DNA from: a virus
Strand: one strand, 5' to 3'
DNA length: 64,000 nt
Virus genome (UHGV): UHGV-0286546
The translations under genes were made by a program, and so were the position numbers. Under the pieces are notes generated by a model. That model saw nothing but the letters and a program-made list of their open reading frames with translations. It was not told where the DNA came from and searched no databases. Shown in pieces: positions 6,119-62,648 of the stretch (position 1 is the first letter of the stretch; every line of letters starts with the position of its first letter).

Positions 6119-6140
6119 GTTCTAGAAAAATAGTTATACG
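6119..6140 (+). promoter_or_regulatory. Recurring GTTCTA-box promoter-like element (GTTCTAGAAAAATAGTTATACG).
   Basis: In the divergent intergenic region 61 nt upstream of ORF 6186. Shares GTTCTA plus AAAATAGTTA with the site at 20365. Confidence 0.35.
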
Positions 6141-6185
6141 TTTTGTCTAATATTTTAACCTTTCTAAATAAAATGAAACAAATCA

Positions 6186-6590
6186 ATGGCCATTAAAAGT
6201 AAATTAGATCCAGAAGATAAGATAGAATTACTCATTAAACTTGCTTTTGGAATACCACCGAAAGATTTATCAAAAGAGTATGACTTATCAGAAGAAAAAA
6301 TTATTAATCTTAGAAAAAATAATTACTTAAAATACAATGAATTTTTCGATCATTGGAGAATCGATAAAGAGGTTGCGGTTTTAGATTTAACTCCTAAACA
6401 TGAAAGAGCTTTAAGTATAGTCAAAAAGTTTTATAAATCAAAAATTACAATCATTTCTGCAAATTCTATTTTATATAACGGTAAACCTTGTACAATGTCT
6501 GAAATCTTAGATATGGCAGACTATATTCTTCAAAAAGATAATATAATGTGCTTTAAAGATTTACCGCTTCAAATTAAAAATCATTATTAA
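6186..6590 (+). CDS. Hypothetical protein (early-like small gene).
   Basis: 134-aa ORF with an ATG start, first gene after a divergent intergenic region. A GTTCTA box lies 61 nt upstream. Confidence 0.5.
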   Translation: MAIKSKLDPEDKIELLIKLAFGIPPKDLSKEYDLSEEKIINLRKNNYLKYNEFFDHWRIDKEVAVLDLTPKHERALSIVKKFYKSKITIISANSILYNGKPCTMSEILDMADYILQKDNIMCFKDLPLQIKNHY

Positions 6591-6609
6591 AAAAGGAGAA
6601 TAAATAAAA

Positions 6610-7020
6610 ATGGCGATACAGCAAAAAGTCGTTGATATTTCCAGTAAAGAATTAACAAAACAGCAGTATGCCGAATCAACTAAAGGTATATATATGAATA
6701 TGCTTTGTGGTTGTAGATGGGACCCTGTTGATAATAAATATAAAATGGCACCTATTGTTTATTCTGATGTACCACTCGAAGGCGAAAAAGTTAAATACGG
6801 AAGTGGACAAGAATTCGTTGTAAATTATTCCTGTCTTGCTGAAGAATTTGCACACAAAACCGAAGTAAAAGATATGTGGTGGAAGAAAGCTCAGGAAATT
6901 GTAGATATGTATAAAGAGCAGTGCCAAATCGAAGACCACATCAAATCACACAATACAGATCTTAAAAAGTTACGTAAAGAAGGCGTACTTAAAGATCAAG
7001 AAGATTTAGATAAAGAATAA
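6610..7020 (+). CDS. Hypothetical protein.
   Basis: 136-aa ORF preceded by a strong SD (AAAGGAGAATAAATAAAAATG). Confidence 0.55.
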   Translation: MAIQQKVVDISSKELTKQQYAESTKGIYMNMLCGCRWDPVDNKYKMAPIVYSDVPLEGEKVKYGSGQEFVVNYSCLAEEFAHKTEVKDMWWKKAQEIVDMYKEQCQIEDHIKSHNTDLKKLRKEGVLKDQEDLDKE

Positions 7021-7301
7021 TGTCTACAAACTATTCTAAAATTAAAACTATTTCCGAAGACACCGGTTTAAAAGAATCACAAGTTGCTGAAGTACTTTAT
7101 TCTTACCTATGCTGGTGTCTTCAAGAAGTTTTAATATCCGGAGAATCAAGAACAGTCTTCGGTACTTTGTCTTTAAATGAAAATAATCGCCTAAAACTAG
7201 AAAACGATAAAGAAGGACTAATTTCGCTACTCGGAAAATCAGACATTAAAATGATTAGAAAGATTTGCGAAGAAGGACCAGACTTTAAAATTTTTGGATA
7301 A
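7020..7301 (+). CDS. Hypothetical protein.
   Basis: 93-aa ORF. Its start overlaps the stop of the upstream gene (TAATG). Confidence 0.45.
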   Translation: MSTNYSKIKTISEDTGLKESQVAEVLYSYLCWCLQEVLISGESRTVFGTLSLNENNRLKLENDKEGLISLLGKSDIKMIRKICEEGPDFKIFG

Positions 7302-7306
7302 TATAA

Positions 7307-7552
7307 TTGATAAAAACTACATTCAAAGAAGAAAGAGACCTCGAAGAACTAATAGAAGATACATTCGACCTATGTGTTTCTAATAAAGATGAAATATACT
7401 GGTTAATTTGTCTTTTACGCGGATTTATGAATATTCCGAATAAACGTACTGAATACTGCCAAGAAAACTTCGAAATAAACAGATGGCAATATCAACTACA
7501 CCCAATCATTGAAAAACATAAAAAAAGGTATCATCACAGTTGCTATGAGTAG
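7307..7552 (+). CDS. Hypothetical protein (TTG start, uncertain).
   Basis: 81-aa ORF. Begins with TTG directly after the upstream stop, so the start is uncertain. Confidence 0.3.
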   Translation: MIKTTFKEERDLEELIEDTFDLCVSNKDEIYWLICLLRGFMNIPNKRTEYCQENFEINRWQYQLHPIIEKHKKRYHHSCYE

Positions 7553-8021
7553 TGCAAAAGAATTTACATTATCACACGAAGAATTAAGTAGTAAAGAAAT
7601 GGTATATATTGCATGTACTATTCTTGAATCACGTGGATATCAGGGTTTTACTCAATTATTACAAATAGTAGACGATCCAACCATTATTCTTAAAATTATC
7701 CGCTTTCTTTATGGTATGGAAATTAAAGTACCACCTCTAAAGGAATTCATAAATTGTCTACGTGCTGCTGAATATACCTTCTGTGACATGCATAAAAAAA
7801 TTCACGTGAACTTATGCGCTAAACCAGTCGATATACGTAATTTCATGGGTATTACAGAAGAAGAAGAAAAAGAACTTCTACAAATCTTCGATGAATGGTG
7901 TACTTTTATGCATAAAAACGGTATAGACCTCACAAATATCATGCACATCAACCGAAACAATACCAAAAAACGTATAAAAATGAATGCAATAGGCAAAAAA
8001 TGGACTAAAAAGTTATACTAA
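7545..8021 (+). CDS. Hypothetical protein.
   Basis: The track ORF starts at TTG 7509. An internal ATG at 7545 overlaps the upstream stop (ATGAGTAG) and is the more likely start, giving a 158-aa product. Confidence 0.4.
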   Translation: MSSAKEFTLSHEELSSKEMVYIACTILESRGYQGFTQLLQIVDDPTIILKIIRFLYGMEIKVPPLKEFINCLRAAEYTFCDMHKKIHVNLCAKPVDIRNFMGITEEEEKELLQIFDEWCTFMHKNGIDLTNIMHINRNNTKKRIKMNAIGKKWTKKLY

Positions 8022-8029
8022 AATATACA

Positions 8030-8052
8030 GTTCTAATTATATAGTATAAAAC
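8030..8052 (+). promoter_or_regulatory. GTTCTA-box element (ACAGTTCTAATTATATAGTATAAAAC).
   Basis: 35 nt upstream of ORF 8071. Confidence 0.35.
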
Positions 8053-8070: not shown

Positions 8071-8766
8071 ATGAGTGACGATTTTCCTAAATATTGGACC
8101 GAAGAAGAAGTAAATCCAGAAACAGGCGAAATTTATGATAATTCTACTGCTTTAATGCCCGTTGTAGAAGAAGAAGCTCCTTTACCTACTATAGCGGAGC
8201 AAAGAGAAATTGTAAACGAAGCAACGGATGTATCCAAAGAAAGTAAATCTATGCTCAACAGCCTCATAGAAATGAATACCGTTGCTCAAACTCTTGCTGC
8301 TATCCGTACAAATGAAACTGCTGAACAAAGACGAAACGTAATTACTGCATGGAGCGAAAACTTTATAAACGCCAGAATGCAAAACAACGTATCTGCTGAA
8401 TTACTCAAACAAAAATTACTCGAACGTCTAATTCAAAATCTTCCTAACCTTGACCTAGAAACTACTGCTAGAATCTACAATGATTTAACAGACGTTTCTT
8501 CAGTCGACGCACAACAAGCCTTCTCTGCAATTACCGGTGGTGGCGCGGCTGTTCCTGGAAATTCTGGAGGCATCTCTCTAACGATAAATAATGCAACGAG
8601 TGAAGGAGCTACAATTACAAACAATACTCTAAATGCTAGCCCTCAACAAGTCGGTCAACTAAAAGAAGTCAATACTTTAAACTCTTCAATAAAAGCCTGG
8701 AATAACATGCCCTTACCAAAGAAAAAAGTAATAGATACAGAATACATTGAAAATAAAAAAGATTAA
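8071..8766 (+). CDS. Hypothetical protein, possibly the terminase small subunit by position only.
   Basis: 231-aa ORF immediately upstream of the terminase large subunit gene. Acidic N-terminus, Gly/Ser/Asn-rich C-terminus. A GTTCTA box lies 35 nt upstream. Confidence 0.4.
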   Translation: MSDDFPKYWTEEEVNPETGEIYDNSTALMPVVEEEAPLPTIAEQREIVNEATDVSKESKSMLNSLIEMNTVAQTLAAIRTNETAEQRRNVITAWSENFINARMQNNVSAELLKQKLLERLIQNLPNLDLETTARIYNDLTDVSSVDAQQAFSAITGGGAAVPGNSGGISLTINNATSEGATITNNTLNASPQQVGQLKEVNTLNSSIKAWNNMPLPKKKVIDTEYIENKKD

Positions 8767-8808
8767 TTCAGTAGAAATTCTATATCAAAAATATTAAAAA
8801 GGATTTTC

Positions 8809-10890
8809 ATGGAAGATTTACCATTAGAAATTGAAGAAAAAATAGAACAATTACCGATTTTACCTTTTGAAATAAACGAAGAATTTCAAGAGCTTATGTT
8901 TTCTGACTTGTTTTCTGATATTTTCAATTTTTATAAAGAAAATTATTTACCAGATACACTTAAAACAAAATCAGAAATTTATCAAAGAATAAGTTTGTAC
9001 CTAAATCTTACCGGACAAGGCGATAAATTTACAGAAGAAACTGATAAACTCCTTTGGCGAAGACCTTGCCCTGATATTCATACCTTCTTGGCAGATAAAT
9101 TTTACATGGGATATAACAACAGTACTTTGTATCCATTCTGGCGTGAAAAACTAGAGTACATGTTTAGAGATTCTTCACCTGTTAGAAAAGCTATATTTTC
9201 GGGTTGTATAGGATCTGGTAAGTCGACAGTAGCTCGTAAAGCCTTCGTATACGTTCTATATCGCTTACTTTGTTTACGCTATCCACGCTCTGTACTTAAT
9301 ATTGACCAAGATGCTACAATTGCAAACGTCGTTATTGCTACAACTCTGAAACAAGTGTATGAAGTTAATATTCTTCCATTTATTAAACTTATGGAAACAA
9401 TGCCTTGCTTTCAAAGAGTTATGTCACAGAGGTCCTTTGAAAACTTTAATCTCGAAGATCCTCTTTGCCCTATACCTTTTTATTTTGAAAAAAGCAGTGG
9501 TACAATACATTTTCCTGACAATATTATTTTAACCAGTGGTAGTCAACCGACACACTTTACTGGTATGAATGTCATTAATTCATTCTGCTTCACAGAAACT
9601 ACAAAAGTATATACAAACGTTGGAACAATTACATTTGCTTCATTATTAACGCGTTTTAATCGTAAAGAAAAAATATATACATATACTATAGACAAAAACG
9701 GAAATAAAGAAAAAAGTTTAATTACAGACGTTAAAGTAACCGGGTATAAAACAGATTTAATTAGAATCTATTATGAGGATGATAGATATATCGAATGTAC
9801 TCCAGAACATCCTTTTGTAATATCTAATCCAAAAGAGAACGATAAACATGTAATATATGAAAACGGAATCCCATACAAACAAGCTCAATACTTAACAGAA
9901 GAAGATGAAATAGTATCCGAAAAACATGCCTTTGTTTATGAATTAATTGACAATCGACCAGATTCGGCATATTTCAACAAACCGTTTTATATTGGAATAA
10001 GTACGCATGATAATACGCTTGTAAAGTCACATTCTGTTAAATTTTTAAGACCTTACTCACATTTTACAAACAAATCACTAAAAAATGAAGCGAATTTAAT
10101 AAAAAAGAGTATTATTACAAAGATTTTGACAGCAGGTTTGAAACCAAAAATAAATATCATAAAAGAAAATTTAACTTTACAAGAAGCATATACTTTAGAA
10201 AAAGAATTGATCAATAAATATGGAAAAAGATATGACAATTCCGGAATATTAGCAAATATAAGTTCAGGTGGGGAAGGTATAATACTAACTACTCCGGATA
10301 TAATTAAAAGAAAAAGTGAAAATATAAAGAAAACTAAAGCAAAAATTCGTGCGCAAAAAATCGCCGAAAAACAACAAGAATGGGATACTTTGATAAGTAG
10401 TATATCTGGACGTTTGGCTATAATGATCGTATGCTTGCAATACATTGACGCTGTTCGGAAACGTTACCAACAAGGTGCTAATTCACCGCATAAGAAAGAA
10501 GTATCGAGGCAAAATATGATTAAATATAATAAATCAGAAGAACATAGAAAATTAACAGCGTATTATAATTCCATTCGTCCAAAAGTTTCTTCTAAAGAGA
10601 GTAGAGAAAAATTAAGTAAAAGCCAAAAAGAAGCATGGCGTAGAAAACCAATAGAAGAAAAAAGAGAAGTCAGTATCGGAAGAAGTTTAACAAATGCTTG
10701 GAATGTTTTACAAAAAATAGAAGGAAACAAAATTAACTCAAAGATTTTTAATGCTCATAGAATACCAAAAACTATGCATTCACGTACCGATCCTTGCTGG
10801 GAAACCTTGGTTAAAAAAATAGGAAGTGTTGAAAAGTTTTTAGATATGGTTAATAAAAAATACGGTAAGAGGTTTATATATGAAGATTAA
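8809..10890 (+). CDS. terL: Terminase large subunit N-extein (ATPase, Walker A) fused in frame to the intein N-terminal splicing domain and an I-TevI-like GIY-YIG/NUMOD homing endonuclease domain.
   Basis: Walker A is AIFSGCIGSGKST. The extein ends ...MNVINSF. The intein starts at Cys codon 9586-9588 (CFTETTKVYTNVGTITFASLL, block A) and block B is ECTPEHPFV. The GIY-YIG domain (FVYELIDNRPDSAYFNKPFYIGIS ... R..H ... N ... E) follows. Then NUMOD3-like basic repeats (HKKEVSRQNMIKYN, SKESREKLSKSQKEAWRRK). The ORF stops at 10888-10890. Confidence 0.75.
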   Translation: MEDLPLEIEEKIEQLPILPFEINEEFQELMFSDLFSDIFNFYKENYLPDTLKTKSEIYQRISLYLNLTGQGDKFTEETDKLLWRRPCPDIHTFLADKFYMGYNNSTLYPFWREKLEYMFRDSSPVRKAIFSGCIGSGKSTVARKAFVYVLYRLLCLRYPRSVLNIDQDATIANVVIATTLKQVYEVNILPFIKLMETMPCFQRVMSQRSFENFNLEDPLCPIPFYFEKSSGTIHFPDNIILTSGSQPTHFTGMNVINSFCFTETTKVYTNVGTITFASLLTRFNRKEKIYTYTIDKNGNKEKSLITDVKVTGYKTDLIRIYYEDDRYIECTPEHPFVISNPKENDKHVIYENGIPYKQAQYLTEEDEIVSEKHAFVYELIDNRPDSAYFNKPFYIGISTHDNTLVKSHSVKFLRPYSHFTNKSLKNEANLIKKSIITKILTAGLKPKINIIKENLTLQEAYTLEKELINKYGKRYDNSGILANISSGGEGIILTTPDIIKRKSENIKKTKAKIRAQKIAEKQQEWDTLISSISGRLAIMIVCLQYIDAVRKRYQQGANSPHKKEVSRQNMIKYNKSEEHRKLTAYYNSIRPKVSSKESREKLSKSQKEAWRRKPIEEKREVSIGRSLTNAWNVLQKIEGNKINSKIFNAHRIPKTMHSRTDPCWETLVKKIGSVEKFLDMVNKKYGKRFIYED

Positions 10891-11008: not shown

Positions 11009-12253
11009 TGTGATGAGATCAATGATTACGGTAGTGTCGAAAGTACAATCGCATTATTAAATACCCTAGATAACAGATTTTCTAGTAGATTTTCTAATGT
11101 GGATTTGGTATTTCAAAGCGTTGTGAGTTCGGCTCGTACAACCAATTCTGCTTTGGGTGAGTATGTTCGTCACTTACCACAAAATGACCCTTCTATTCTA
11201 AAATTAAATCCAATGTTGTGGGAAGTTAAACCAGACCCAGACTTTAAAGGAGACGGTACAACTTTTCCAGTAATGGTAGGCAATGGTAGTATTCCGTCTA
11301 AAATTATTACTGACCCCGGTGAATTAAAAGCTATAGAAGAAAGTAAGTATGAACCACCAGCTGGATGTATTTTAATTAATGTACCAACAATCTTTCGTTC
11401 TAAATTCGAATTACAATTAGATCAATCGATACAAGATATTGCAGGTATAACTACAGATGATGACAACAGTGTATTTCGTGATACTACACAATTAGAAGAT
11501 ACTCGGCTTAATCCTGAATTTGTTTTAGAGGTTAACATAAGAGATAATACAAACATTCTTGACTTATTAAAGCAATACGATTTGTTTGAAATGAACTTGA
11601 ATAATACTTGGCAATTTAAAAGAGCACCGAAAGCAGATCGTTATGGGCATGTAGATTTAGCCGGCGGTGGTTCTGATGGACAATGTGACGCTGCCGTTTG
11701 TATTTTACATAAAGAATATCAGTATAATGAAGTAACTAAGTTGAAAGATATAATTTATGTAGTTGATTTATTATTAGCCATTAATGCAAAGAATAAGGTT
11801 GATATAAAAGCTATTCAAAACTTTTTAATTGATTTAGTAGTAGAAAGAAATATACCTATTCATACTATAACGGCAGATCAATGGCAAAGTTTGATGTTTT
11901 TACAGACTTTAGAGGCATCGGGTTGTTTTAGTAAGGTTGACAAATTATCTGTAGATACCAAGTTAGAGCCTTATACTAATTTAGCTACAATGTTAGAGCA
12001 AGGACAAGTTAAAGTAGGTAGTTGTCCTAAACTTAAAAAAGAATTAGAAGCATTAATATTAGATAAAGGTAAAGTAACACGTACGACAGAACTTAAAGAT
12101 TTAGCAGATGCATTAGTAGGTGCTGTATGGAATGCTCAATTAAATTATACAGATGTACCTATTTATGAATATACTAAACCAGAACTTAAAACAAGAGTAC
12201 TTACGTATACAGATTATATAGATTCCTCCTCCGAATTATTATGTGATTTATAG
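10880..12253 (+). CDS. terL: Intein C-terminal segment (43 aa, own ATG and SD-like AAGAGGT) fused to the terminase large subunit C-extein (nuclease domain).
   Basis: MKIKKIEKIHLDEPVPVYDLTVENENHNFALSLDDGTIAFAHN then CDEINDYGS. The RNaseH-like terminase nuclease motif is GHVDLAGGGSDGQCDAAVCIL (hhGxDxAxxGxDxxA). Confidence 0.75.
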   Translation: MKIKKIEKIHLDEPVPVYDLTVENENHNFALSLDDGTIAFAHNCDEINDYGSVESTIALLNTLDNRFSSRFSNVDLVFQSVVSSARTTNSALGEYVRHLPQNDPSILKLNPMLWEVKPDPDFKGDGTTFPVMVGNGSIPSKIITDPGELKAIEESKYEPPAGCILINVPTIFRSKFELQLDQSIQDIAGITTDDDNSVFRDTTQLEDTRLNPEFVLEVNIRDNTNILDLLKQYDLFEMNLNNTWQFKRAPKADRYGHVDLAGGGSDGQCDAAVCILHKEYQYNEVTKLKDIIYVVDLLLAINAKNKVDIKAIQNFLIDLVVERNIPIHTITADQWQSLMFLQTLEASGCFSKVDKLSVDTKLEPYTNLATMLEQGQVKVGSCPKLKKELEALILDKGKVTRTTELKDLADALVGAVWNAQLNYTDVPIYEYTKPELKTRVLTYTDYIDSSSELLCDL

Positions 12254-12591
12254 AATTTTGTTTCATATGTTAATACAGCCAATCTATAATCATAACGATG
12301 GATTCTACACAGAGTCTGTAATTCTTCAGCTTGTTCTTTAGAATCATTTTCCAAGTACCATTCGTAGAGACTTCTGTATAATTCTTGAGGAGTAGGTTTA
12401 TTATATTTTCTTTCATATAAGGTATCTTCGATCTTATTTAGAATGCTATCACTTGTTTTAGCAACATCACCTAAAGATTCTGAACAGTAATCCAACGAGT
12501 CTAACACTTTGTCCATTTTTTCAAGTAGCTCACTTGGAACTTCAAATATAATCGGGTGACTGTGCATTGCTATATCTTCCTCTTCTGACAT
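12214..12591 (-). CDS. Hypothetical small acidic protein. It is convergent with the terminase gene and overlaps its 3' end by 40 nt.
   Basis: 125-aa ORF on the opposite strand between plus-strand gene blocks. Confidence 0.4.
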   Translation of the reverse strand: MSEEEDIAMHSHPIIFEVPSELLEKMDKVLDSLDYCSESLGDVAKTSDSILNKIEDTLYERKYNKPTPQELYRSLYEWYLENDSKEQAEELQTLCRIHRYDYRLAVLTYETKFYKSHNNSEEESI

Positions 12592-12719
12592 TTCAACCTC
12601 AAAATTTGTTTTACTTTAATTTCAATTTATAATAATGATTTTTGATTGTAAAGCAAATTATTATTCTCTTTTAATCAACTTCTGCTTTTTATCTTTTTTG
12701 ATTATTGGATTTTTTAAAG

Positions 12720-12732
12720 GTTCTATAATCTA
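12720..12732 (+). promoter_or_regulatory. GTTCTA-box element (GTTCTATAATCTA).
   Basis: 72 nt upstream of the preferred start ATG 12798. Confidence 0.3.
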
Positions 12733-13538
12733 TGTCAAAATTTAAAAATACGGTTTTGCATGCAGATAAAGAGGCAGAAAAAACTAGGAAGTATAATATG
12801 TTAAATGAAGACATTTGGTCATTTATACGTGTTGTATTCTTTTCTGGAGTAATCTTGTTAAGTAATATACACGAAGTAAATGCCAAAACTAATTACGAAG
12901 CTTTGCATATTAACCATGATGTCATTGCTAAATATGAAAGTGGTGATAAAGGGTACGAAGCTATAGCAAAAGATAATTATAGTGGACATTCTTATGGTAA
13001 ATGGCAAATCTCAACTTATCGTAAAAATGGTAAATCTTCTACATTTGATTATTTTCTAAAATATGCTAAAGAAAACGATGTAGAATTATATAATATACTA
13101 GAAAAAGCAGGTGGATATAAAGCAGCATATAGAGGTGATAAATTATTTACTAAAGTATGGTTAAATCTTGCTTCTAATAAAAAATTTCAAAACCTCTATG
13201 ATAACTTTATATTAAATACTCAAATTGTTCCAGTATATCGTCGTTTAGATGATACGCATGATGCCAGATTAGATAGAGTAACTACGTGGGGTTCTTCTAA
13301 TGATGCAGTTCAAGCGGCGATTAAATCAATTATTATTCAACATGGATGTGGCGGTGCCTATAAAATGATTAATACAGTTATGGACACACATAATCCAAAA
13401 ACAGAGGAAGACTTTTTAAATAGGTTGTATAACCTTAGAATTAGTAAATTTCCTCTGTATGTCGGTCGTTATAAAGCCGAACACAAAGAATTGAAACAAA
13501 TTCTTATTACCCACAAACAAAACAATAAAATAATCTAA
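12732..13538 (+). CDS. Secreted or membrane-anchored protein with a GH108-like (lysozyme-like) N-terminal motif. The likely true start is ATG 12798.
   Basis: The internal ATG at 12798 is preceded by AGGAAG (9 nt spacing) and yields a signal-peptide-like MLNEDIWSFIRVVFFSGVILLSNIHEVNA. The segment IAKYESGDKGYEAIAKDNYSGHSYGKWQIS resembles the GH108 EGGYvnxxxDxGGxTxyGIT signature. This is a weak call. Confidence 0.45.
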   Translation: MSKFKNTVLHADKEAEKTRKYNMLNEDIWSFIRVVFFSGVILLSNIHEVNAKTNYEALHINHDVIAKYESGDKGYEAIAKDNYSGHSYGKWQISTYRKNGKSSTFDYFLKYAKENDVELYNILEKAGGYKAAYRGDKLFTKVWLNLASNKKFQNLYDNFILNTQIVPVYRRLDDTHDARLDRVTTWGSSNDAVQAAIKSIIIQHGCGGAYKMINTVMDTHNPKTEEDFLNRLYNLRISKFPLYVGRYKAEHKELKQILITHKQNNKII

Positions 13539-13604
13539 TCTTTAATTATATCTGTCTCTTAATTGTAAAAGTCATCTTTAAATAAGGTGGCTTTTTTCTT
13601 ATTC

Positions 13605-13617
13605 GTTCTATATAAGG
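13605..13617 (+). promoter_or_regulatory. GTTCTA-box element (GTTCTATATAAGG).
   Basis: 23 nt upstream of ORF 13634. Nearly identical to the site at 20365 (GTTCTATATAAAG). Confidence 0.35.
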
Positions 13618-13633: not shown

Positions 13634-14305
13634 ATGGAGTTAACTATGTCAGTCTTATATGGTTTATGGTGGGGTTTTTTACGTAGATGGTTTGGTGGAT
13701 TATTTCCTGATGAACAATATAAAATTCTTGGTAACCGCGGACTACAAACAACAGTAATGATTCTTAGTTTGTTACCAGTTATATTCGTCCATACAAAAGA
13801 AATCTACAGTACCTTAAACATTTACGTTATTCTTGCTATTACTCTATTTATTACGTTATGGATTCAATTTCAGTTTTGGTCAAGAGGTCACGGTGCTACA
13901 TTCTTAGACATGGGACGTACTAAAGATCCTGATTTAAGCCGTTATGACAGATGGTTCAAAAAGCCGTTAGACAAATGCTGGGATAAATTACTACAATTAA
14001 AACAAAATAATAAAATTGCAGCTTTCTTATTACAAAAATGGTCAGGAAGAAAGTACGGTTATACTTATGATATGATTTACCACACTCTTCGTTACACCAT
14101 TTGTATGATTGTTCCTGCCATCTTATTAAAATCTTGGGCATTTATTATAATAGGTCTTATTTCTGCTCCTCTTTATGAATTAGCAATAAGATTCTATGAA
14201 AAAGCTAACTATAAATATGCTTGGATGAAATTACCTTGGTTAAACAGTCCAAATAAGCCTACTGAAATTATTTATGGTTTTATTTTCGGAGTACTGGTAT
14301 ACTAA
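13634..14305 (+). CDS. Multi-pass membrane protein (4-5 predicted TM helices).
   Basis: Hydrophobic stretches include LWWGFLRRWFGGLF, TTVMILSLLPVIFV, IYVILAITLFITLWIQF, ICMIVPAILLKSWAFIIIGLISAPL and IIYGFIFGVLVY. Confidence 0.55.
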   Translation: MELTMSVLYGLWWGFLRRWFGGLFPDEQYKILGNRGLQTTVMILSLLPVIFVHTKEIYSTLNIYVILAITLFITLWIQFQFWSRGHGATFLDMGRTKDPDLSRYDRWFKKPLDKCWDKLLQLKQNNKIAAFLLQKWSGRKYGYTYDMIYHTLRYTICMIVPAILLKSWAFIIIGLISAPLYELAIRFYEKANYKYAWMKLPWLNSPNKPTEIIYGFIFGVLVY

Positions 14306-14392
14306 ATGAAAATACTACAACTACTTATATTGTTCTTTAGTATTTTACTTATTTGTATAATAATGGCTTTTATTGCTTTACAAAGAGTATAG
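14306..14392 (+). CDS. Putative 28-aa single-TM micro-protein (MKILQLLILFFSILLICIIMAFIALQRV). It is not in the ORF track.
   Basis: The ATG sits immediately after the TAA of the upstream membrane-protein gene (TAAATG). The whole product is hydrophobic. Confidence 0.25.
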   Translation: MKILQLLILFFSILLICIIMAFIALQRV

Positions 14393-14429
14393 ATTAAAGC
14401 ATAATAATTAAAAAGGAGAGGTTGTTTTA

Positions 14430-16519: not shown

Positions 16520-16530
16520 ATACAGCATTT

Positions 16531-16542
16531 GTTCTATATTAT
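16531..16542 (+). promoter_or_regulatory. GTTCTA-box element (ATACAGCATTTGTTCTATATTAT).
   Basis: 48 nt upstream of the tail tube gene. A TACAG motif precedes it, as at 8025 and 20362. Confidence 0.35.
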
Positions 16543-16584
16543 GAGCAGTCAAATCTACTTTAATAACTATAGGACAAAAATAAC

Positions 16585-17136: not shown

Positions 17137-17165
17137 AATATAATTAAGTATTTGATTTTTAAAGA

Positions 17166-17199
17166 AAATGCCAGGTTTTATTCTACTTGGCATTTTTTA
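17166..17199 (+). terminator. Rho-independent terminator after the tail tube gene.
   Basis: AATGCCAGGT / ACTTGGCATT 10-bp stem (one G-U pair), 8-nt loop, followed by TTTTTTATTTATTTT. Confidence 0.55.
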
Positions 17200-17331
17200 T
17201 TTATTTTCCTCAGAGGGTGTTATAAATTTACCTAGAATAAACAAACTTTGATTTGGGATAAAACCTAATAATAATAAAGTTCTAATAATTAACTTGAAAT
17301 TTTACTTATATTTATTAGGACTTTATTTGTA

Positions 17332-20337: not shown

Positions 20338-20364
20338 ATAAAGTAATAAATACAAATAATTACA

Positions 20365-20388
20365 GTTCTATATAAAGAAAATAGTTAA
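20365..20388 (+). promoter_or_regulatory. GTTCTA-box element (TACAGTTCTATATAAAGAAAATAGTTAAT).
   Basis: 64 nt upstream of ORF 20435. Confidence 0.35.
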
Positions 20389-21927: not shown

Positions 21928-22014
21928 TATATTAGAAATTTTTATGATACTTTTTAGATAATAGTTAGTATTCTATATAGTATAAGTTATGTTTTTATCA
22001 TAGGATTATAAAAA

Positions 22015-51308: not shown

Positions 51309-51327
51309 TATACTTACTATTTAGAAC
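51309..51327 (-). promoter_or_regulatory. GTTCTA-box element on the minus strand (AGTTCTAAATAGTAAGTAT).
   Basis: 50 nt upstream of ORF 50661..51272. Confidence 0.35.
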
Positions 51328-51360
51328 TAATTCCCTCTATAACAAGCAAAATAAATAAAA

Positions 51361-54664: not shown

Positions 54665-57198
54665 TAGTCAATATCCTCCAGAGATTCTAATGATAATTCT
54701 TTACTTGCACTGTTATAATAAGCATCTTTTAATCTTGTAAGAAAACCCATATTACGTAATTTTTTAAATAAGGCATTACCTGCACCAAATTCGCCTTCTT
54801 TGGCAAGACTATCTTTACGTAATTGACCTAAAAATTTCCATAATTCACCAATTACAGAAGAGTCTTTACTTTGAATAGCATTTTCAATTTTACTTGTTAT
54901 ACTATTGAAAACAGGCATGTCAGGATCAGCTATTTCAATTTCTGCATTATTCGGTTGTTTTACCCATTGATCTTTTAATACAGAATAAATACCAGATGTA
55001 ACAAGTGGTTTATCTTTATTTTCTGCGCCTACTTCTACAGGAATACCTTTAATAGTAATCTTATAGTTGCTATTAAATACTTTTTTCGCTGCCTGCAAAT
55101 ATTTTTCTACAATTTCAGCATGTATACCAACGTTTTCAAAATCATAAACTAAATGTAAATCAATATCGCTTTGATCATTGTAGTTATAATTAGCGCAACT
55201 ACCTGTAAAATAAATATCAACAGGAGCAATAGGTAAATCTAAACTTTCTTCAAATTTATTAGCGACTTCGAGTAATGCAGCTTTAACGTCTTTTTTTAAT
55301 TTATCGTTTTCGAATAAATTTGGGTTTAATTCAGAATGTGTATAAGCTTCTTCCATACTATCTTCTGTTATTTTACCACCAACAGACATAATTCCACCTC
55401 GAACCATAGTATCTTGATTTTGTGGAGTAGTAATGGCAGCACTTACAACATCGTTTACAGCCGCTTCAGTTTTTGTAGGTTTTTCATTTAGCTTTTCTTT
55501 TGCTGCGGCATCTAACTTTCTGTAATATTCACTAGGACGTGCATTATAATAAGCTCTTACATCAACAATACTTTCTAATTCAGGTTTCTCTTTCATTGTA
55601 TTTTTGAAAATGTCAATATTCATTTTATTAACATCTTCTTCTGAAAAACCTTTATCCATATTTACAAGAAGTTGATTCATTGTACTTACAGCATCAGATT
55701 GTTTTATTGGATCGCTATGCCTACTGTTTACCTGTAAGTTATGTGTATCTAAATTATTTTTGCTTATATTTGCGTAGTTAGTACTTCTAGTAGGATTCAA
55801 TCTGACTTGTTTTTGAGGATTAATTACTTTTACAGGCTCTTGTTTATTCATTTTTTGATAAAGTCTTTGTAATTTAGCTTGATCTACATGTTTTTTATCC
55901 AATCTAGCTAAGAAAGAATCTTCAGAAGAACCACCGTGAATTGGATTACCTGGTACAGGAGTTCTGTTGTTTGAAATATCATTAAGTAATTTATCTTCGT
56001 AATTTTTCTGACCAAGAGGAGTATCTACATTATTTGTTTTAATGAGTTTACGTTCTTTTGCAGTCGCTTTAATTTGATTTAACTCTTGGTTTAATTCTCT
56101 TTGCATGGATCTCTGTTCATCTGGAGTCCATCTATTAACATGTGCGTATGCTTCTAAGTCCCAAAGTTGCTGCTTGATTTCTTTCATTCTAACTTGTTCT
56201 TCGGGAGTATATTTTATTGTATTATCATCAACAACAACTTTTAATTGTTTTCTGAGTGTAGCAATTTTTTGGTTAAGTGCCGCAATCTGTGTATGAATAC
56301 CGCGAATTTCTTCTGGACTTGCGCCTTGTTCTTTCTTTTCTTTGGCGAGGGCTAATAATTCTTTTACTTTATCACCTGACGCACGAACTTGTGTTGCTAA
56401 ACTATGTTGTAAATCACCACTATTAACAGTATCAACAAAATCAACATTTTTTACAACGTTTCTATAAATTGTACCTAATTGTTCAGTTGTCATAATATCA
56501 GGATTATGCCTGTCATCATCCAAGAACAAAGCGAGAGCTGGATATTTATCACCAAAACCATTTGTTTTATAATGATACCACAATTCACGAATAAATTTAG
56601 GATCGTTGAATTTTTTTAAACCTGTTGCACTATCTCTTGTTAAAATACTAGTAACAAATGGCTTATTTTTTCTTTTTTCTGGAATATTACCATTATAACC
56701 AACTGGGTAAACCTTTACTGTATGTTCTGTCGTATAATCTTCTTTACGAGCATTGTGTCTTCTTTCTAATTCTTCGTAATTAAAAGCTTCAATAAGTTTT
56801 TCGTTAGTCATAACAGATTCAAACCACCCATTAGTAGGCTTTCCTTTACTTTGCGGATCACCTTTTCTTGTTTCACGGTTGATACTAGGAATATCATTTA
56901 ATAATTTTACATAATAGTCAGATAATACATTATTACCACGCCATTTTGAAAAAGCAGTACTGAACATTAAATATGTAGTAATATCATCTGGAGCATTGTC
57001 TTCAATCCACTCAAAGATAGAAGATTCAAAACATTTACGAAGAATCAAACCGCGCTTTTTAGCTTTTTCATAGAAATCTTTTTTATCTCGAAACATACCT
57101 TTAATAATTTTAAAAGCATTATTTTCTTTATCGAGAACTATACCTGTATAAGATTCAAAATTGGATTTATCTGAATATTCTAAAAGATTATTATTCAT
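54664..57198 (-). CDS. Large protein (844 aa) with a central coiled coil and a C-terminal minimal nucleotidyltransferase (Pol-beta superfamily) domain.
   Basis: PVDIYFTGSCANYNYNDQSDIDLHLVYD matches the MNT hG[GS]x9-13Dh[DE]h motif. The coiled-coil region is GIHTQIAALNQKIATLRKQLK...QRELNQELNQIKATAKERK. Confidence 0.6.
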   Translation of the reverse strand: MNNNLLEYSDKSNFESYTGIVLDKENNAFKIIKGMFRDKKDFYEKAKKRGLILRKCFESSIFEWIEDNAPDDITTYLMFSTAFSKWRGNNVLSDYYVKLLNDIPSINRETRKGDPQSKGKPTNGWFESVMTNEKLIEAFNYEELERRHNARKEDYTTEHTVKVYPVGYNGNIPEKRKNKPFVTSILTRDSATGLKKFNDPKFIRELWYHYKTNGFGDKYPALALFLDDDRHNPDIMTTEQLGTIYRNVVKNVDFVDTVNSGDLQHSLATQVRASGDKVKELLALAKEKKEQGASPEEIRGIHTQIAALNQKIATLRKQLKVVVDDNTIKYTPEEQVRMKEIKQQLWDLEAYAHVNRWTPDEQRSMQRELNQELNQIKATAKERKLIKTNNVDTPLGQKNYEDKLLNDISNNRTPVPGNPIHGGSSEDSFLARLDKKHVDQAKLQRLYQKMNKQEPVKVINPQKQVRLNPTRSTNYANISKNNLDTHNLQVNSRHSDPIKQSDAVSTMNQLLVNMDKGFSEEDVNKMNIDIFKNTMKEKPELESIVDVRAYYNARPSEYYRKLDAAAKEKLNEKPTKTEAAVNDVVSAAITTPQNQDTMVRGGIMSVGGKITEDSMEEAYTHSELNPNLFENDKLKKDVKAALLEVANKFEESLDLPIAPVDIYFTGSCANYNYNDQSDIDLHLVYDFENVGIHAEIVEKYLQAAKKVFNSNYKITIKGIPVEVGAENKDKPLVTSGIYSVLKDQWVKQPNNAEIEIADPDMPVFNSITSKIENAIQSKDSSVIGELWKFLGQLRKDSLAKEGEFGAGNALFKKLRNMGFLTRLKDAYYNSASKELSLESLEDID

Positions 57199-57220: not shown

Positions 57221-57236
57221 CTTTTATAACTAGAAC
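57221..57236 (-). promoter_or_regulatory. GTTCTA-box element on the minus strand (AGTTCTAGTTATAAAAG).
   Basis: 32 nt upstream of the 844-aa NTase-domain gene start at 57198. Confidence 0.35.
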
Positions 57237-57274
57237 TTTATATTAATTTTTAGACTGATTTTTTAATATTTATA

Positions 57275-57634: not shown

Positions 57635-57990
57635 ATAAAATAGTCTCCTTTATCAATACCATATAATTTATTTTCAAAATCTATTTCTGTGTCTAACCAA
57701 CCTTGAGCAGCTGCGGCACTAAAATATTTTGAAAAGTTATCTTCAAATTTTGGCTCTTTATCTACAATTTGTTTAACGATGTCTTTATCAAAATCAATTA
57801 AAAGCTTTTTTTCACTATTTAAAGCATTCAATATTTTTTTAATATAGTCTTCGTTAAAGCTTTGAAATAATAAATTGTGAAACTTAAAATAATCCATATA
57901 CGTTTGTTTTTCTTCAAGTTTATTAGTCAAACGTATCTTTTCATATTTCTTTTCAACAATATATATGCCACGAATTACTTTATCAGTCAT
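57631..57990 (-). CDS. Hypothetical protein.
   Basis: 119-aa ORF, overlaps the upstream gene's stop by 8 nt. Confidence 0.5.
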   Translation of the reverse strand: MTDKVIRGIYIVEKKYEKIRLTNKLEEKQTYMDYFKFHNLLFQSFNEDYIKKILNALNSEKKLLIDFDKDIVKQIVDKEPKFEDNFSKYFSAAAAQGWLDTEIDFENKLYGIDKGDYFI

Positions 57991-59773
57991 TTTCTTTCAG
58001 ATACTTCTTTTCACTTTTTAATACTGCTTCTTTTAATGACCTGTCTAAAGAAGTTGTCATTGTATTAAACATTATCTGTAATCCTTTAGCATCAGCATAA
58101 TTTTCTTTCAAGTATTGTTTAGAGGTAACAGAATATGCAACAGTCTCTTCTAATTCTGGTGCAGGTAGTGCAGTTTTAGATTTTAGTTTTTGACCTGTTA
58201 AGAATTTACCTAACTCTTCTGGTGAATCTAAGGTATTAATAGAAACTTTGCTAATAATGAGAGAAGCAATATCTACTGGCATACCCATCTTAATTAAAAA
58301 CTGGAATTTATTTATGTCAGTCATTTCATTGTTCAAATCACTCAAAGACTTAAGTAATTCACAAATATCATTATACTTTGCAATAACATCAGCAGGAATT
58401 TGAATTGGTTCATTTAAGCTTACTTCTACATCCAATTTTGAAACATCATAACCCGCGTGTGTCAATACCTTTTCAACAAGATTCATAATACCATTGACTA
58501 AACCTTTTTTCAACGGAATCAAAGCACGACGTAATTTAAGATCTTGTGCATCTAAGGTCTGAGCTGTAGTAATTACGTCTTCACCTACCAAATAACCTTT
58601 CGGTAAGTTAGAATTACGTAAGATTTTATCTAAGAAATACTGAACGTCTTCGACAGAGCTCAAATCAATGTTAGATTCAATGTGATCAACTTCAACTTTT
58701 TTACCATCGTGAGACATAGGTAAAGTAAGAATAGACATTGCACCCGGAACTTTACGCCCTGCTTTGTTACTATTCATGTCTGTAAAGATAGAGTTTAAAT
58801 ATTGACCTCTAAATTCTTGTAAATAACTATAAGAATCTACAAGATTAATTCCATTTGGCATAGGAACATAAAATACTAAACGCTGAATCTTACTTGCTCG
58901 AGAAATACCTAATAAAGCTTCAAGAGTTGTCAACTGATCAAAAGCAGAACGCATAGACCATAACATAGACTTTCCATAAGGTTCAGTAATTTCATCTGGC
59001 AATAACATGTGTACAAACTGCCAATTCTGCCAAATCTTATACTGTTCACGCGAACTCTTTCTAGTATTTACGTATGCACGTTTTTCAGTTGTTTTATAAT
59101 TAATAGGATTTAAATATTCATCACAATTGACTTCAAAGTTTTTAGGATTAATAAAACTAATAACTAAGTCTTCTAATATATCTAAACGTGAAATATCAAC
59201 TTCTTCATCATCCGTCATCCAATTTTCTAAATAAGGATAAGATAAGGTAAATCCATAATTACCATATTTAGCTAAGGATTTGGTAATATTCGGTAATTTC
59301 TGGTAAATTTTATTCTTATAAAAGACTTTTTCGATTAAAGTTTGTGCTTTTTGATTAGAAATACGAATATTTAACGGATTTTCTACGAATCCTTGTCCTA
59401 ATACTTCTGCAACATATGTATCAAGAATAAGATCGATTTCTGATAAATTCTCTGCCATCAAATCAAATGTCTGATAAGCAGAAAGCATTGTATTATAATT
59501 ACCATCATAGTAAGTATAGGTTGACATAAAATCGTCATAAATACTAAAATCTTCATTATTCAGATTATTATATTTATAAGACAACGGAATACTAACATAC
59601 TCGCCGTTTGCTGTACTACCTACACAGAAGTTATGTTTTTTAGCTAATCCTTTTAATACATCAAAGCTAATACCGGGATTGGTTACAAACAAAATATCAT
59701 TTTCTTTATCATGATAACTGTTCTCAACAATCCGTTTGGCTAAACTTTTAAACATTCTAGAGTCTCTATCCAT
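57983..59773 (-). CDS. Hypothetical large protein (596 aa). Possibly a virion structural protein (portal or sheath not established).
   Basis: Long ORF within the late operon. No confident motif. Confidence 0.5.
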   Translation of the reverse strand: MDRDSRMFKSLAKRIVENSYHDKENDILFVTNPGISFDVLKGLAKKHNFCVGSTANGEYVSIPLSYKYNNLNNEDFSIYDDFMSTYTYYDGNYNTMLSAYQTFDLMAENLSEIDLILDTYVAEVLGQGFVENPLNIRISNQKAQTLIEKVFYKNKIYQKLPNITKSLAKYGNYGFTLSYPYLENWMTDDEEVDISRLDILEDLVISFINPKNFEVNCDEYLNPINYKTTEKRAYVNTRKSSREQYKIWQNWQFVHMLLPDEITEPYGKSMLWSMRSAFDQLTTLEALLGISRASKIQRLVFYVPMPNGINLVDSYSYLQEFRGQYLNSIFTDMNSNKAGRKVPGAMSILTLPMSHDGKKVEVDHIESNIDLSSVEDVQYFLDKILRNSNLPKGYLVGEDVITTAQTLDAQDLKLRRALIPLKKGLVNGIMNLVEKVLTHAGYDVSKLDVEVSLNEPIQIPADVIAKYNDICELLKSLSDLNNEMTDINKFQFLIKMGMPVDIASLIISKVSINTLDSPEELGKFLTGQKLKSKTALPAPELEETVAYSVTSKQYLKENYADAKGLQIMFNTMTTSLDRSLKEAVLKSEKKYLKEND

Positions 59774-60258: not shown

Positions 60259-60435
60259 TTACCCATTCAATGATCTACGGATTTTAACATCACCCTCTTT
60301 AGTAACAGTTGCTACACCTAATTTAGAGGCATTGACTTTTTCTAAGAGTTCTTCTTTTGTCATTTCTTCTAATTCTTCATCTAATTTTTCTTCAATGAAT
60401 TCTTTAGTCGATTCAGTAATTATAGTTTTCGTCAT
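60259..60435 (-). CDS. Putative small acidic protein (58 aa), not in the ORF track.
   Basis: Reverse-strand ORF MTKTIITESTKEFIEEKLDEELEEMTKEELLEKVNASKLGVATVTKEGDVKIRRSLNG with a good SD (AAAGGAGTAATAATAATG). It fills an otherwise empty 197-nt gap. Confidence 0.35.
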   Translation of the reverse strand: MTKTIITESTKEFIEEKLDEELEEMTKEELLEKVNASKLGVATVTKEGDVKIRRSLNG

Positions 60436-60448
60436 TATTATTACTCCT

Positions 60449-60979
60449 TTATCTATTATTTAATCTCAATTGAATTGCATTAGCATTTAATACCATTTTC
60501 TCATTCATCAAAACTGTTTCAGCAGGAGCTAATGGTAATACTGCAATTAATTCGTAATTATACTTTGGTTCTTGGTCTTCATTAGATACGTCAGATTGAA
60601 CTCTTGATTCAGATTCACTACCGGATTCCTCATCATAGAATCTATAATATAACCCAATGTATTTAATTTGGTCTGTACCGGTTGTCCAATCTTCAGTGGC
60701 TTTACTCCAAGAGATAGCATTTTTGTTTCTGATAATTCCGTTAATTGGTTCACTAAACTCTACAGGCTCTTCTAAAATTGTAAATCCTGTTGCTACAGGT
60801 TCTTTAGAAAATACAAAATTCTCGCGATCAAATTCAATACCTAAACCGACATAAATTTCTGAAGACTTATAATTATCGTTAGGCATACCAAAACTATTAT
60901 CTAAAATAGTATCAATAAGCTTAGGAGATAATTCAAAACGTACTACATTTGACATTATTTTTATTTCCTTAAATATCAC
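60449..60979 (-). CDS. Hypothetical protein, tandem paralog of 60969..61424.
   Basis: Shares EIYVGLG(I/L) and ATEDWT blocks with the adjacent ORF. Confidence 0.5.
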   Translation of the reverse strand: MIFKEIKIMSNVVRFELSPKLIDTILDNSFGMPNDNYKSSEIYVGLGIEFDRENFVFSKEPVATGFTILEEPVEFSEPINGIIRNKNAISWSKATEDWTTGTDQIKYIGLYYRFYDEESGSESESRVQSDVSNEDQEPKYNYELIAVLPLAPAETVLMNEKMVLNANAIQLRLNNR

Positions 60980-61424
60980 TTAAACTCAATTCAATAGCGC
61001 CAGGAGATAAAATAATAGTCTCTCCTTTCAAAGCTGTTTCAAATCTAGGTAATTTTAATACAACCAAAGGCTTAACTAATTCACCTTCCTCAGTTTCATA
61101 ATCTAATGTATCAAAAATTCCTAACATTTCGATTTTATGAGAAGCATCTGTCCAATCTTCAGTTGCAGTAGTAAATACGACTTCATTCTCATTTGAAATT
61201 ACATTACCATCTGCTCTTCCAAAAATAACACGTGCTCTTTTATAATTACCTAAAGGTCTACCATTAAAAACTTCACTAAAATCTTCGCTGTTTACTAATA
61301 CAGGAGTTTGTGTTAAACCTAATCCAACATATATTTCTTTAGCTTCAGTATTTGACATTTCAAAACCAAAGTACTGTTTTAAAAGGCTATTCATAAAATC
61401 AATTTGCAATCCATATTTTGCCAT
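60969..61424 (-). CDS. Hypothetical protein, tandem paralog of 60449..60979.
   Basis: Shares EIYVGLG and ATEDWTD blocks. The genes overlap by 11 nt. Confidence 0.5.
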   Translation of the reverse strand: MAKYGLQIDFMNSLLKQYFGFEMSNTEAKEIYVGLGLTQTPVLVNSEDFSEVFNGRPLGNYKRARVIFGRADGNVISNENEVVFTTATEDWTDASHKIEMLGIFDTLDYETEEGELVKPLVVLKLPRFETALKGETIILSPGAIELSLSDI

Positions 61425-61476
61425 TATCTAATTCCTAATCTTTATTTTAAATTCATATAGTAATTTTAACCACTTA

Positions 61477-62610
61477 TTAATTTAGAACAGATACAGTAAC
61501 CTTCTTAGAGGTAAATACTGTTTCCATTCTATAAGCATTAATATATTTTGGCTTAGAAATAACAGGAGTTTCAATCGTTTCTTGATATAAGTCTTCGGTC
61601 CAAGTTGTATATATTAATTTAATTGAAGCATCTCTTATATTTACAACTAATCCTTCGTCCTGATCACCCAATTCAGTATAACCTTTATTTGTATTTAATT
61701 TATATTTAGTTATACTTCCATTCTTATCTACTTCTAATACAGTCATAGAAAGAATTACACTTTGGTCACCGTCTATGTCTGTTAAAATTTCAATAGGTTG
61801 ATCATAATCATCTAATAATTCAAAGCTATCTCCAACCTTAAATCCAGATCCGCCATTTATAATATTCTTTGCTCTATCGTCATAATACAATAATGTAAAG
61901 ATTTGTTCATCATAGCCAATCTGATCAAGCATTTGCTCTTGAACAACATCTTGATAAACTTTAGATACTTTAGACATATTAACACCAGAACGCAAAAACC
62001 AAAGTATACCTTGTGCTCTAATGTCATTGTGATTTATATAATTGTCTACATTGTAATCAAACCAAATCGTACCAATACTAGGATTAGACGAATCAAATAA
62101 TGATTGACGAGCAGGTACACAATTTGCAATACGAGTATATGTCTTACTTCCACTTAATTGTTTTTGTACTGTACCTAAAACAACCCATTCTCTTGCAATT
62201 CTTTCTTCTCTTGCATTATATTCGCTTAAAATAATTCTACTGTTTCTAGGAAGATGTAATTTAGAAGGTATAAGAATCTCTAATGGATAAAGTCCGTCTG
62301 TTCCATCTGCACTCATTCCTTCTTCTGATACATTTTGACGATATTCATTAAATTTAGGTATTACAGTTTCCGTTGTATCTAACCATTCTGTATCCACAAA
62401 GTTTGAATATTCATCTACATTATTTTCTAATAAATCACCAAATTCAGTAACAGGAATTTTAATAAGAACTTTTATACCCCAATTACTAAATAATGCTTCA
62501 TCACGCAAAGCTGCTACATACTCTGCCTGTGAACCAATATAAGCATCTCTCAGGTTAAAACTAGAAAAAGAAGTTTCTTTGAGTCTTGAATTATTTTTAA
62601 TGTTTTTCAT
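61477..62610 (-). CDS. Hypothetical protein (377 aa), first gene of the long minus-strand late operon after the GroEL terminator.
   Basis: A GTTCTA box lies 32 nt upstream on the minus strand. Confidence 0.5.
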   Translation of the reverse strand: MKNIKNNSRLKETSFSSFNLRDAYIGSQAEYVAALRDEALFSNWGIKVLIKIPVTEFGDLLENNVDEYSNFVDTEWLDTTETVIPKFNEYRQNVSEEGMSADGTDGLYPLEILIPSKLHLPRNSRIILSEYNAREERIAREWVVLGTVQKQLSGSKTYTRIANCVPARQSLFDSSNPSIGTIWFDYNVDNYINHNDIRAQGILWFLRSGVNMSKVSKVYQDVVQEQMLDQIGYDEQIFTLLYYDDRAKNIINGGSGFKVGDSFELLDDYDQPIEILTDIDGDQSVILSMTVLEVDKNGSITKYKLNTNKGYTELGDQDEGLVVNIRDASIKLIYTTWTEDLYQETIETPVISKPKYINAYRMETVFTSKKVTVSVLN

Positions 62611-62627
62611 ATTAATTTTTCTTATAA

Positions 62628-62648
62628 AATGCTAATAGTCTTTAGAAC
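62628..62648 (-). promoter_or_regulatory. GTTCTA-box element on the minus strand (AAGTTCTAAAGACTATTAGCA).
   Basis: 32 nt upstream of ORF 61477..62610, just downstream of the GroEL terminator. Confidence 0.3.

Follow-up and report, generated by a model that had tools for sequence, protein, structure and literature searches.

Phage-specific promoters have been described in several forms. The late promoters of T4 carry TATAAATA at about −10 and are read by the host core polymerase together with gp55, gp33 and the gp45 clamp. The MotA box, with the consensus (a/t)(a/t)TGCTT(t/c)A, lies near −30 and depends on a −10 hexamer of the sigma-70 type 11–13 bp downstream. The promoters of SPO1 are bipartite (AGGAGA-N17-TTTNTTT and CGTTAGA-N18-GATATT), and the promoters of phage polymerases include AACA-N6-TW for the nvRNAP of AR9, TATG for phiKZ and the T7-like elements of about 18–23 bp. 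Here, we analyzed a short box, GTTCTA, that precedes genes on both strands in a 64,000-nt stretch (the window) of the virus genome UHGV-0286546. The window has a G+C content of 32% and encodes the structural module of a large and highly divergent myophage, an uncultured jumbo phage of ~240 kb. The box lies outside the TATAAATA, MotA and canonical sigma-70 families, one defining feature of each having been looked for and found absent, and it is conserved across a whole clade of jumbo-phage relatives from rumen and gut. Judged by its sequence context, the box is almost certainly the phage's own middle or late promoter, with GTTCTA very probably forming a −10-type core.

Distribution and conservation of the GTTCTA core

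A simple gene map assigned 4.9% of the window to intergenic DNA, and the orientation of the downstream gene was taken as the sense strand. In this sense-intergenic DNA, GTTCTA was found 13 times against 0.8 expected (p ~ 4e-12), which made it the top 6-mer, above the Shine-Dalgarno word AAGGAG. A sequence-only reading of the window had earlier listed ten copies of a longer box, (A/C)AGTTCTA. All ten carry GTTCTA on the strand that was given, and the (A/C)A prefix is present at four of them (8030, 20365, 57231 and 62643); as a motif, MAGTTCTA is not enriched window-wide, with nine copies against 7.4 in shuffled sequences. The true core is GTTCTA rather than the longer word, and its enrichment shows only with gene context, the whole-window count of the exact earlier pattern showing none. 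Beyond the listed copies, three intergenic sites (17279 +, 34677 − and 42711 −) and one site in the end of a gene (61483 −) were detected.

Related loci were taken as 20-kb stretches around the portal gene, with portal identities of 54–82%. Pooling the window with 17 of these loci gave 98 sense-intergenic copies of GTTCTA against 5.9 expected (p ~ 1e-81), with only five antisense copies in co-directional gaps, and variants of the core with one mismatch were not enriched in the same set. Similar frequencies inside and outside genes, which the sequence-only reading had named as the outcome that would speak against the box, were not observed, since the density was 4.5 per kb in sense-intergenic DNA versus 0.15 per kb in coding DNA (~30-fold). 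Compared with synonymous-codon shuffles, GTTCTA is ~2-fold depleted within genes on both strands (z −4.8 and −7.6), and the control words GTTCTT and GTTATA showed no depletion in coding DNA.

When 21 loci were analyzed one by one, GTTCTA ranked first among the enriched sense-intergenic 6-mers in 7 and no lower than third in 15, down to a portal identity of 54%. Boxes at matching positions were observed before the gene after GroEL, before the 844-aa gene after the portal operon and before nrdG, in intergenic sequence that has otherwise diverged until it is not alignable. Another box is located in the 3′ end of a 377-aa gene, where Val-Leu is written GTT-CTA in the window and in eight relatives. 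The codon CTA accounts for 5.6% of Leu codons, and the retention of this rare codon suggests selection on the DNA word itself.

Within the genes of the window, the word AGTTCTA has only two copies. The one at 37163–37169 (−) lies 174 nt upstream of the tail-fibre gene 34698–36983 and could be an internal promoter, and the one at 46521–46527 (−) lies 78 nt inside the open reading frame (ORF) 46030–46599. A run of the 15-mer promoter pattern over IMG/VR returned chiefly chance matches in unrelated contigs, and literature searches turned up neither GTTCTA as a promoter element nor any description of promoters in this phage clade. The Streptococcus phage vB_SagM-GXN1 (L159; examined at 100–150 kb) is a distant cultured relative with a portal 23% identical. 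No intergenic GTTCTA was found in this region, which has an enriched intergenic word of its own, AACGGTTAT (8 of 13 copies intergenic); this fits promoter words that are specific to each lineage.

Geometry of the box and its reading as a promoter

In all, 84–101 sites were aligned, with the G of GTTCTA as position 0. The sole upstream signal was an A at −1, present in 78–86% of sites; the TACAG prefix ascribed earlier to several boxes is not general and reduces to this preference. Positions +6 to +11 were nearly all A/T (6–12% G+C against a background of 22%), +12 was a purine in 81% of sites, and the G+C content climbed to 34% at +14. The C at position 3 was invariant in a collection that was itself made by the GTTCTA core. 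Information in the aligned sites was confined to −1 to +13, and there was no positional signal at −35-like distances or from +17 to +30. The consensus obtained was a-A-GTTCTA, six A/T-only bases and a purine at +12, and sites of this form are called G-type below, with the one-base variant ATTCTATA called A-type. Because +6 to +11 are A/T-only, the TATA/AATAGTTA element of the sequence-only reading is a spacer and not a second box; no discrete box was found there, and AATAGTTA is near just three sites. Window-wide, AATAGTTA is not enriched (five copies versus nine expected). Of its copies at 6129, 20380 and 21960 (+), two follow a G-type box at 10–15 nt and one precedes an A-type box by 10 nt, and with three of five copies at promoters, the word may be a candidate binding site for an additional regulator.

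The distance from the box to the start codon had been given as 21–72 nt; measured from the end of the core, it ranges from 6 to 64 nt in the window. Across the family, this spacing is bimodal, with a small group at 6–11 nt and a main group at 21–47 nt, and only three sites fall between 12 and 20 nt. In the small group, to which the window site 12720 belongs, the start codon is at about +12 to +15. Start codons 12–15 nt after the box G were observed at 12720–12734 of the window and, in relatives (whose loci carry L numbers), at L003 7983, L006 7993, L016 8126, L017 8092 and 3695, and L018 6521 and 596; such starts suggest leaderless mRNAs for a subset of genes. The tightest leadered sites, with a Shine-Dalgarno sequence from +13/+14, are those of the endolysin (21223) and of the MSKFR tail-tube-like gene in L003, L006 and L029. 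Shine-Dalgarno sequences and start codons at +12 to +15 place the box itself at about −12 to −7.

The same geometry bears on a MotA-style arrangement, the analogy drawn by the sequence-only reading, in which the box would act as an activator site at about −30 and the host sigma-70 or sigma-A would use a downstream −10 hexamer. The DNA downstream of the box is AT-rich and often contains TATAAT-like words. However, no positional signal was observed 11–13 bp downstream of the box or at +17 to +30, Shine-Dalgarno sequences can begin 7–8 nt after the box, and the core is unlike the MotA consensus. With starts and Shine-Dalgarno sequences already at +12 to +15, a −10 element and a transcription start could not be fitted in between, which excludes a MotA-style layout, and we consider this explanation extremely improbable. 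The claim that the box is phage-specific and promoter-like, unlike the sigma-70 −35/−10 layout or the T4 late box, was upheld by the lack of a −35 element, by the different core and by the clade-wide conservation.

An RNA-level signal in the 5′ untranslated region, such as a nuclease processing site or the site of a translational regulator, would also be strand-specific and lie 20–50 nt before start codons, as the box does. Nevertheless, the boxes at 13605 and 21223 start 9–10 nt past a terminator stem, in or right after its T tract, so that read-through would be required for any RNA to include it. Between divergent genes, no conserved element other than the box serves its strand. The A/T-only spacer and the shift in composition at +12/+14 are in keeping with melting of the DNA and with a start site, and Rfam gave no family match in the window. 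A signal in RNA is thus very unlikely, and we return to the promoter reading. Four of the strong intrinsic terminators of the window are followed by a box 9–80 nt downstream (9–10 nt in two cases), and the genes behind the boxes include those for the tail tube, the prohead protease, the endolysin and the baseplate, and the portal operon. In the phage and in its many relatives, most operons of structural genes have a box shortly before them.

To the left of the window by ~215–320 nt (L151 11096–11200), a GTTCTA box in the gap separating ClpP from RecA has two hairpins downstream of it, of which the second is an intrinsic terminator (fold z-score −3.1) and would yield a ~70-nt transcript, a candidate small RNA.

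Companion promoter classes and the possible reader of the box

Conservation of the A-type variant was observed before genes for replication and for chaperonins. The ATTCTA at 21969/21970, noted earlier as a variant, can credibly be assigned to this minority class: ATTCTATW is conserved at orthologous positions and modestly enriched, with 14 copies versus 5.7 expected in the portal loci and five versus 0.8 in the replication loci, and bare ATTCTA, taken as a simple degenerate variant, is not enriched (20 versus 19.9 expected). The form ATTCTATAWWAT was found upstream of dUTPase in five of five genomes, of RecA in two of two and of DNA polymerase in two of four, and about 9 of 13 closer relatives carry it before the GroES/GroEL operon. 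The A-type sites share the purine at +12.

A separate promoter class, TGTTTTACA-N17-TATAAT, marks other genes and is located upstream of ClpP, small ORFs and homing-endonuclease genes. It fits the canonical sigma-70/sigma-A layout, in which a −35 TTGACA and a −10 TATAAT (A at position 2, T at position 6) are 16–18 bp apart. It has an extended −35 form, TGTTTTAC(A/T)-N17-TATAAT, of which TGTTTTAC occurs 16 times in the intergenic DNA of the family against 0.7 expected; sigma-70-type matches were not enriched in the window. By their sequence, these are probably early promoters of the host sigma-A. Their presence suggests that the host RNA polymerase with its ordinary primary sigma factor is used for part of the programme, and their coexistence with the RTTCTA boxes that the latter need another specificity determinant.

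This class also bears on a direct reading of the box by a host sigma factor, either an alternative one or the primary one with −10-only promoters, without any phage factor. A TATAAT-like hexamer at +4 or +6 follows 44–66% of boxes, and two metagenome-assembled genome (MAG) bins made of these contigs are labelled 'Bacilli'. However, the TATAAT-like words slide by 2 nt in register while RTTCTA is fixed, and at +9 of G-type sites, where a −10 hexamer beginning at +4 would have its conserved last T, A was observed in 54% and T in 36%. The distinct canonical −35/−10 class is present in the same genomes, and no sigma factor with a GTTCTA −10 element was found in the literature. We regard direct host reading as improbable.

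A further possible reader is an RNA polymerase encoded by the phage, single-subunit (T7/N4-like) or multisubunit (phiKZ/AR9-like). A short single element that has AT flanks, starts at a purine and lacks a −35 element is equally typical of phage polymerases, the box serves structural and some metabolic genes, and about half of the genome was inspected. Against this, no polymerase was detected by catalytic motif, Pfam or PHROG in the ~120 kb sampled, T7-type promoters are conserved over 18–23 bp when only ~7 bp are specific in the GTTCTA box, and promoters of the host type coexist in the phage family. A phage polymerase is therefore a rather unlikely reader.

Taken as a whole, the reading that we favor as reasonably probable is that of a compact single-element promoter with its hexamer at ~−12 to −7, used by the host core polymerase with a sigma-like factor of the phage. 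In this arrangement, no −35 element would be needed, the A/T-only spacer would melt, and the transcript would begin at the purine at about +12 to +15. The box would drive most structural and lysis operons plus some metabolic genes, and the variant ATTCTATAWWAT would serve replication and chaperonin genes. The host core polymerase would be retargeted by the phage factor in the manner of gp55 in T4 late transcription or of gp28 and gp33/gp34 in SPO1; for this step, drawn by analogy, we see about an even chance. In 'group 2' jumbo phages, which have T4-type structural genes, there is no RNA polymerase, and minimal sigma factors, gp33 and a DsbA/GapR-like protein are encoded (Iyer et al. 2021, PMC7824862). 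A GapR-like gene adjoins the DNA polymerase gene in the extended locus analyzed here.

Several observations weigh against the favored reading. Of the ~240 kb genome space of the phage and its relatives, ~120 kb was sampled, and it yielded no sigma factor, gp55, gp33 or RNA polymerase. The rule for 'group 2' phages transfers weakly, because the DNA polymerase is not T4-type and no cultured phage has a portal with more than 25% identity. The GroES operon, A-type in most relatives, has a G-type box in the subclade that is most distant, so the A/G split is no absolute class marker. In addition, the G-type box also precedes nrdG, which retains GTTCTATA in five of five genomes, and a membrane-protein gene, so it is not limited to structural genes.

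The search for the factor was made in several ways. Queries of all ORFs of the fetched loci with T4 gp55, gp33 and DsbA (phmmer) returned nothing, and PHROG and Pfam scans of ~75 proteins of the window and flanking loci revealed no sigma factor and no polymerase. No conserved protein in the sampled ~120 kb carried DFDGD, DxDGD or the T7 motif C, and PDB sequence searches with five small proteins of the window gave no specificity factor. A 107-aa gene beside the GapR-like gene was considered as gp33 and was found not to be gp33-like (phmmer), and a 331-aa gene upstream of nrdG, considered as a specificity factor, encodes a membrane protein. The first G-type operon encodes two small proteins that were modeled from single sequences (predicted local distance difference test, pLDDT, 51–52), and fold searches with both models gave no significant match. 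The 134-aa protein 6186–6590 (+) shows a segment of three helices at its N terminus, with weak fold matches of the LuxR/GerE type (pLDDT 52), and the 93-aa protein 7020–7301 (+) has a helix-helix-strand pattern in a low-confidence model. Being weakly helix-turn-helix-like in its model, the 134-aa protein may count as a candidate for the specificity factor only in the loosest sense.

Comparison with the described systems revealed both shared and differing features. As in T4 late promoters, there is one short element near −10 without a −35 element upstream of myophage structural genes; the portal, prohead protease and baseplate here are T4-like, canonical host-type promoters coexist, and TCTAWWta, when aligned to the T4 late box, fits the weak T/A at +8/+9 and a start at ~+15. 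The differences are that the bases here are AGTTCTA, that the downstream A/T positions are loosely constrained, that no homologue of gp55, gp33 or gp45 was found in the sampled loci, and that some non-structural genes carry the box. T4 late transcripts begin 6–7 nt past the element; for the box, the purine at +12, the Shine-Dalgarno sequences from +13 and the start codons at +12 to +15 would point to a start at about +12 to +15. The middle and late promoters of SPO1 offer a Bacilli-phage scheme in which sigma-like gp28 and gp33/gp34 retarget the host core stepwise to phage hexamers, and the dUTPase, thymidylate-synthase homologue and dNMP kinase near the window recall a phage with modified bases; however, SPO1 promoters are bipartite, whereas the phage box has no −35 element. 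The T4 middle system (MotA, AsiA and sigma-70) likewise has a phage-specific box in place of the −35 element, but the box here lies at about −10 and not −30, has no fixed −10 hexamer downstream and follows another consensus. The polymerase promoters of T7 (class II/III), AR9 and phiKZ are also compact, strand-specific and near the start, with close variants serving different gene sets, although the box is unrelated to the AR9 and phiKZ consensus and is much shorter than T7-type promoters, and no polymerase gene was found in the sampled half of the genome. In function, the box would by analogy resemble the T4 late promoter or another phage-specific −10-only promoter, which is a familiar kind of signal.

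The source phage, its gene content and the meaning of the box

A megablast search with 8 kb of the window against cultured phages gave zero matches, and the best portal and baseplate matches (tblastn) had identities of 24–28%. More than 230 portal homologues were found in metagenome assemblies, on contigs of ~230–255 kb, chiefly from rumen and gut samples. A portal search of IMG/VR with a single protein found nothing, and the homologues were recovered with an alignment of portal homologues as the query. Among the homologue contigs, two were deposited as 'Bacilli bacterium' and one as 'Succinivibrionaceae'. A left extension beyond the window, together with four relatives, gave access to a replication and nucleotide-metabolism module, which encodes ClpP, RecA, a GapR/DsbA-like protein, a family-B DNA polymerase, dUTPase, dNMP kinase, thymidylate synthase, NrdDG and a ligase; the flanking 1223-aa protein was recognized as the DNA polymerase by a PDB sequence search. 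The features located in the window are shown in Table 1, and further promoters of the canonical class were found in the relatives L154–L162.

Table 1. Positions of the genes, boxes, variants, canonical promoters and terminators located in the window.
Feature	Position	Strand	Context
Portal, T4-like	57983–59773	−	
Prohead-protease fusion	17332–20337	+	
Tail tube	16585–17136	+	
Baseplate wedge and hub	39049–42288, 42750–43454, 49169–49900		
Endolysin	21250–21927	+	
GroEL	62740 onward		
CofE-like/SHMT-like operon	2553–6019	−	left end of window
G-type box (A at −1, GTTCTA, A/T spacer, +12)	6118–6131	+	upstream of small-gene operon 6186–8021; divergent intergenic region 6020–6185
G-type box	8029–8042	+	upstream of 8071–8766
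G-type box	12719–12732	+	first ATG of ORF 12732–13538 exactly at +12; transcript may be leaderless
G-type box	13604–13617	+	upstream of 13634–14305; 10 nt past terminator 13567–13595
G-type box	16530–16543	+	upstream of tail-tube gene
G-type box	17278–17291	+	upstream of prohead-protease fusion; 80 nt past terminator 17163–17198
G-type box	20364–20377	+	upstream of 20435–21154; orthologous site L027 21297
G-type box	21222–21235	+	upstream of endolysin; AAGGAGG begins at +13; 9 nt past terminator 21189–21214
G-type box	34670–34683	−	upstream of 875-aa tail gene 32000–34627
G-type box	42704–42717	−	upstream of 42296–42667 and baseplate wedge gene
G-type box	51315–51328	−	upstream of 50661–51272 and tail-tube/baseplate-hub operon
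G-type box	57224–57237	−	upstream of 844-aa gene 54664–57198; orthologous box in relatives
G-type box	61476–61489	−	in last codons (Val-Leu-Asn-stop) of 61477–62610; 52 nt upstream of operon leading to portal
G-type box	62636–62649	−	upstream of 61477–62610; ~40 nt past terminator 62689–62712; orthologous box in relatives
A-type variant ATTCTAAATAAT	6048–6061	−	upstream of CofE-like/SHMT-like operon
A-type variant ATTCTATATC	8776–8789	+	upstream of 8809–10890
A-type variant ATTCTATATAG	21969–21982	+	upstream of 22015–22470
A-type variant ATTCTAATATAAT	22946–22959	−	upstream of 22676–22933
Canonical class, TTTACA-16-TATAAT, TTGT before it	426–453	−	upstream of ClpP gene running off left end of window
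Canonical class, TTTACA-17-TAAATT	12624–12652	−	upstream of 125-aa gene 12214–12591
Canonical class	1994–2022	−	
Canonical class	14377–14405	+	
Intrinsic terminator	13567–13595	+	immediately upstream of box 13605
Intrinsic terminator	17163–17198	+	upstream of box 17279
Intrinsic terminator	21189–21214	+	immediately upstream of box 21223
Intrinsic terminator	62689–62712	−	10-bp G+C-rich stem, then T run; upstream of box 62643–62648

The SHMT-like and CofE/F420-ligase-like genes at the left end of the window belong to a nucleotide-metabolism cluster that continues in genes left of the window (L151/L154) and also includes dUTPase, dNMP kinase, a DNA methyltransferase, the thymidylate-synthase homologue and anaerobic NrdDG. 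By its gene content, the cluster resembles those for DNA-base modification or for unusual nucleotide metabolism, and the phage DNA may be modified. Selfish elements are numerous (window 892–1989 −, 14430–15929 + and 8809–10890 +; L150, L151 and L156) and include HNH and homing endonuclease genes. A 693-aa protein has a weak intein-domain match, RecA is 709 aa in one and 365 aa in the other of two near-identical contigs (L150 versus L151), and NrdD is interrupted by a NUMOD3 endonuclease ORF in one relative. In the 844-aa protein (54664–57198, −), whose gene adjoins the portal operon, a weak nucleotidyltransferase domain of the Pol-beta type was recognized (PHROG 36119), and its homologue is fused into a 1549-aa protein in the relative L002 (12598–17247). 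Ribosomal protein S21 is encoded by relatives (L155 8151–8357 and L158 4550–4756), and the protein-quality-control set of the clade is unusually full, comprising two ClpP genes, a 785-aa double-AAA+ ATPase, GroES/GroEL and HSP20 (window 23076–25433; L001–L003).

Overall, the box allows operons and promoters to be mapped precisely in a very abundant clade of uncultured jumbo phages, and the three signal types divide the genes into classes, probably by timing. The box may be used as a search tool for its specificity factor, and also for annotating or binning related contigs. If that factor is unrelated to known sigma factors or polymerases, the finding would be of wider interest; at present, it is a well-supported example of a familiar phenomenon. 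One doubtful extension is that the conserved choice between G and A at the start of the box works as a one-base switch and divides the genes into two classes of expression. Both classes would be read by a promoter-specificity factor without detectable similarity to gp55, sigma-70 or known phage polymerases. If this were true, a new transcription-factor family would control a worldwide clade of uncultured ~240 kb phages from gut and rumen.

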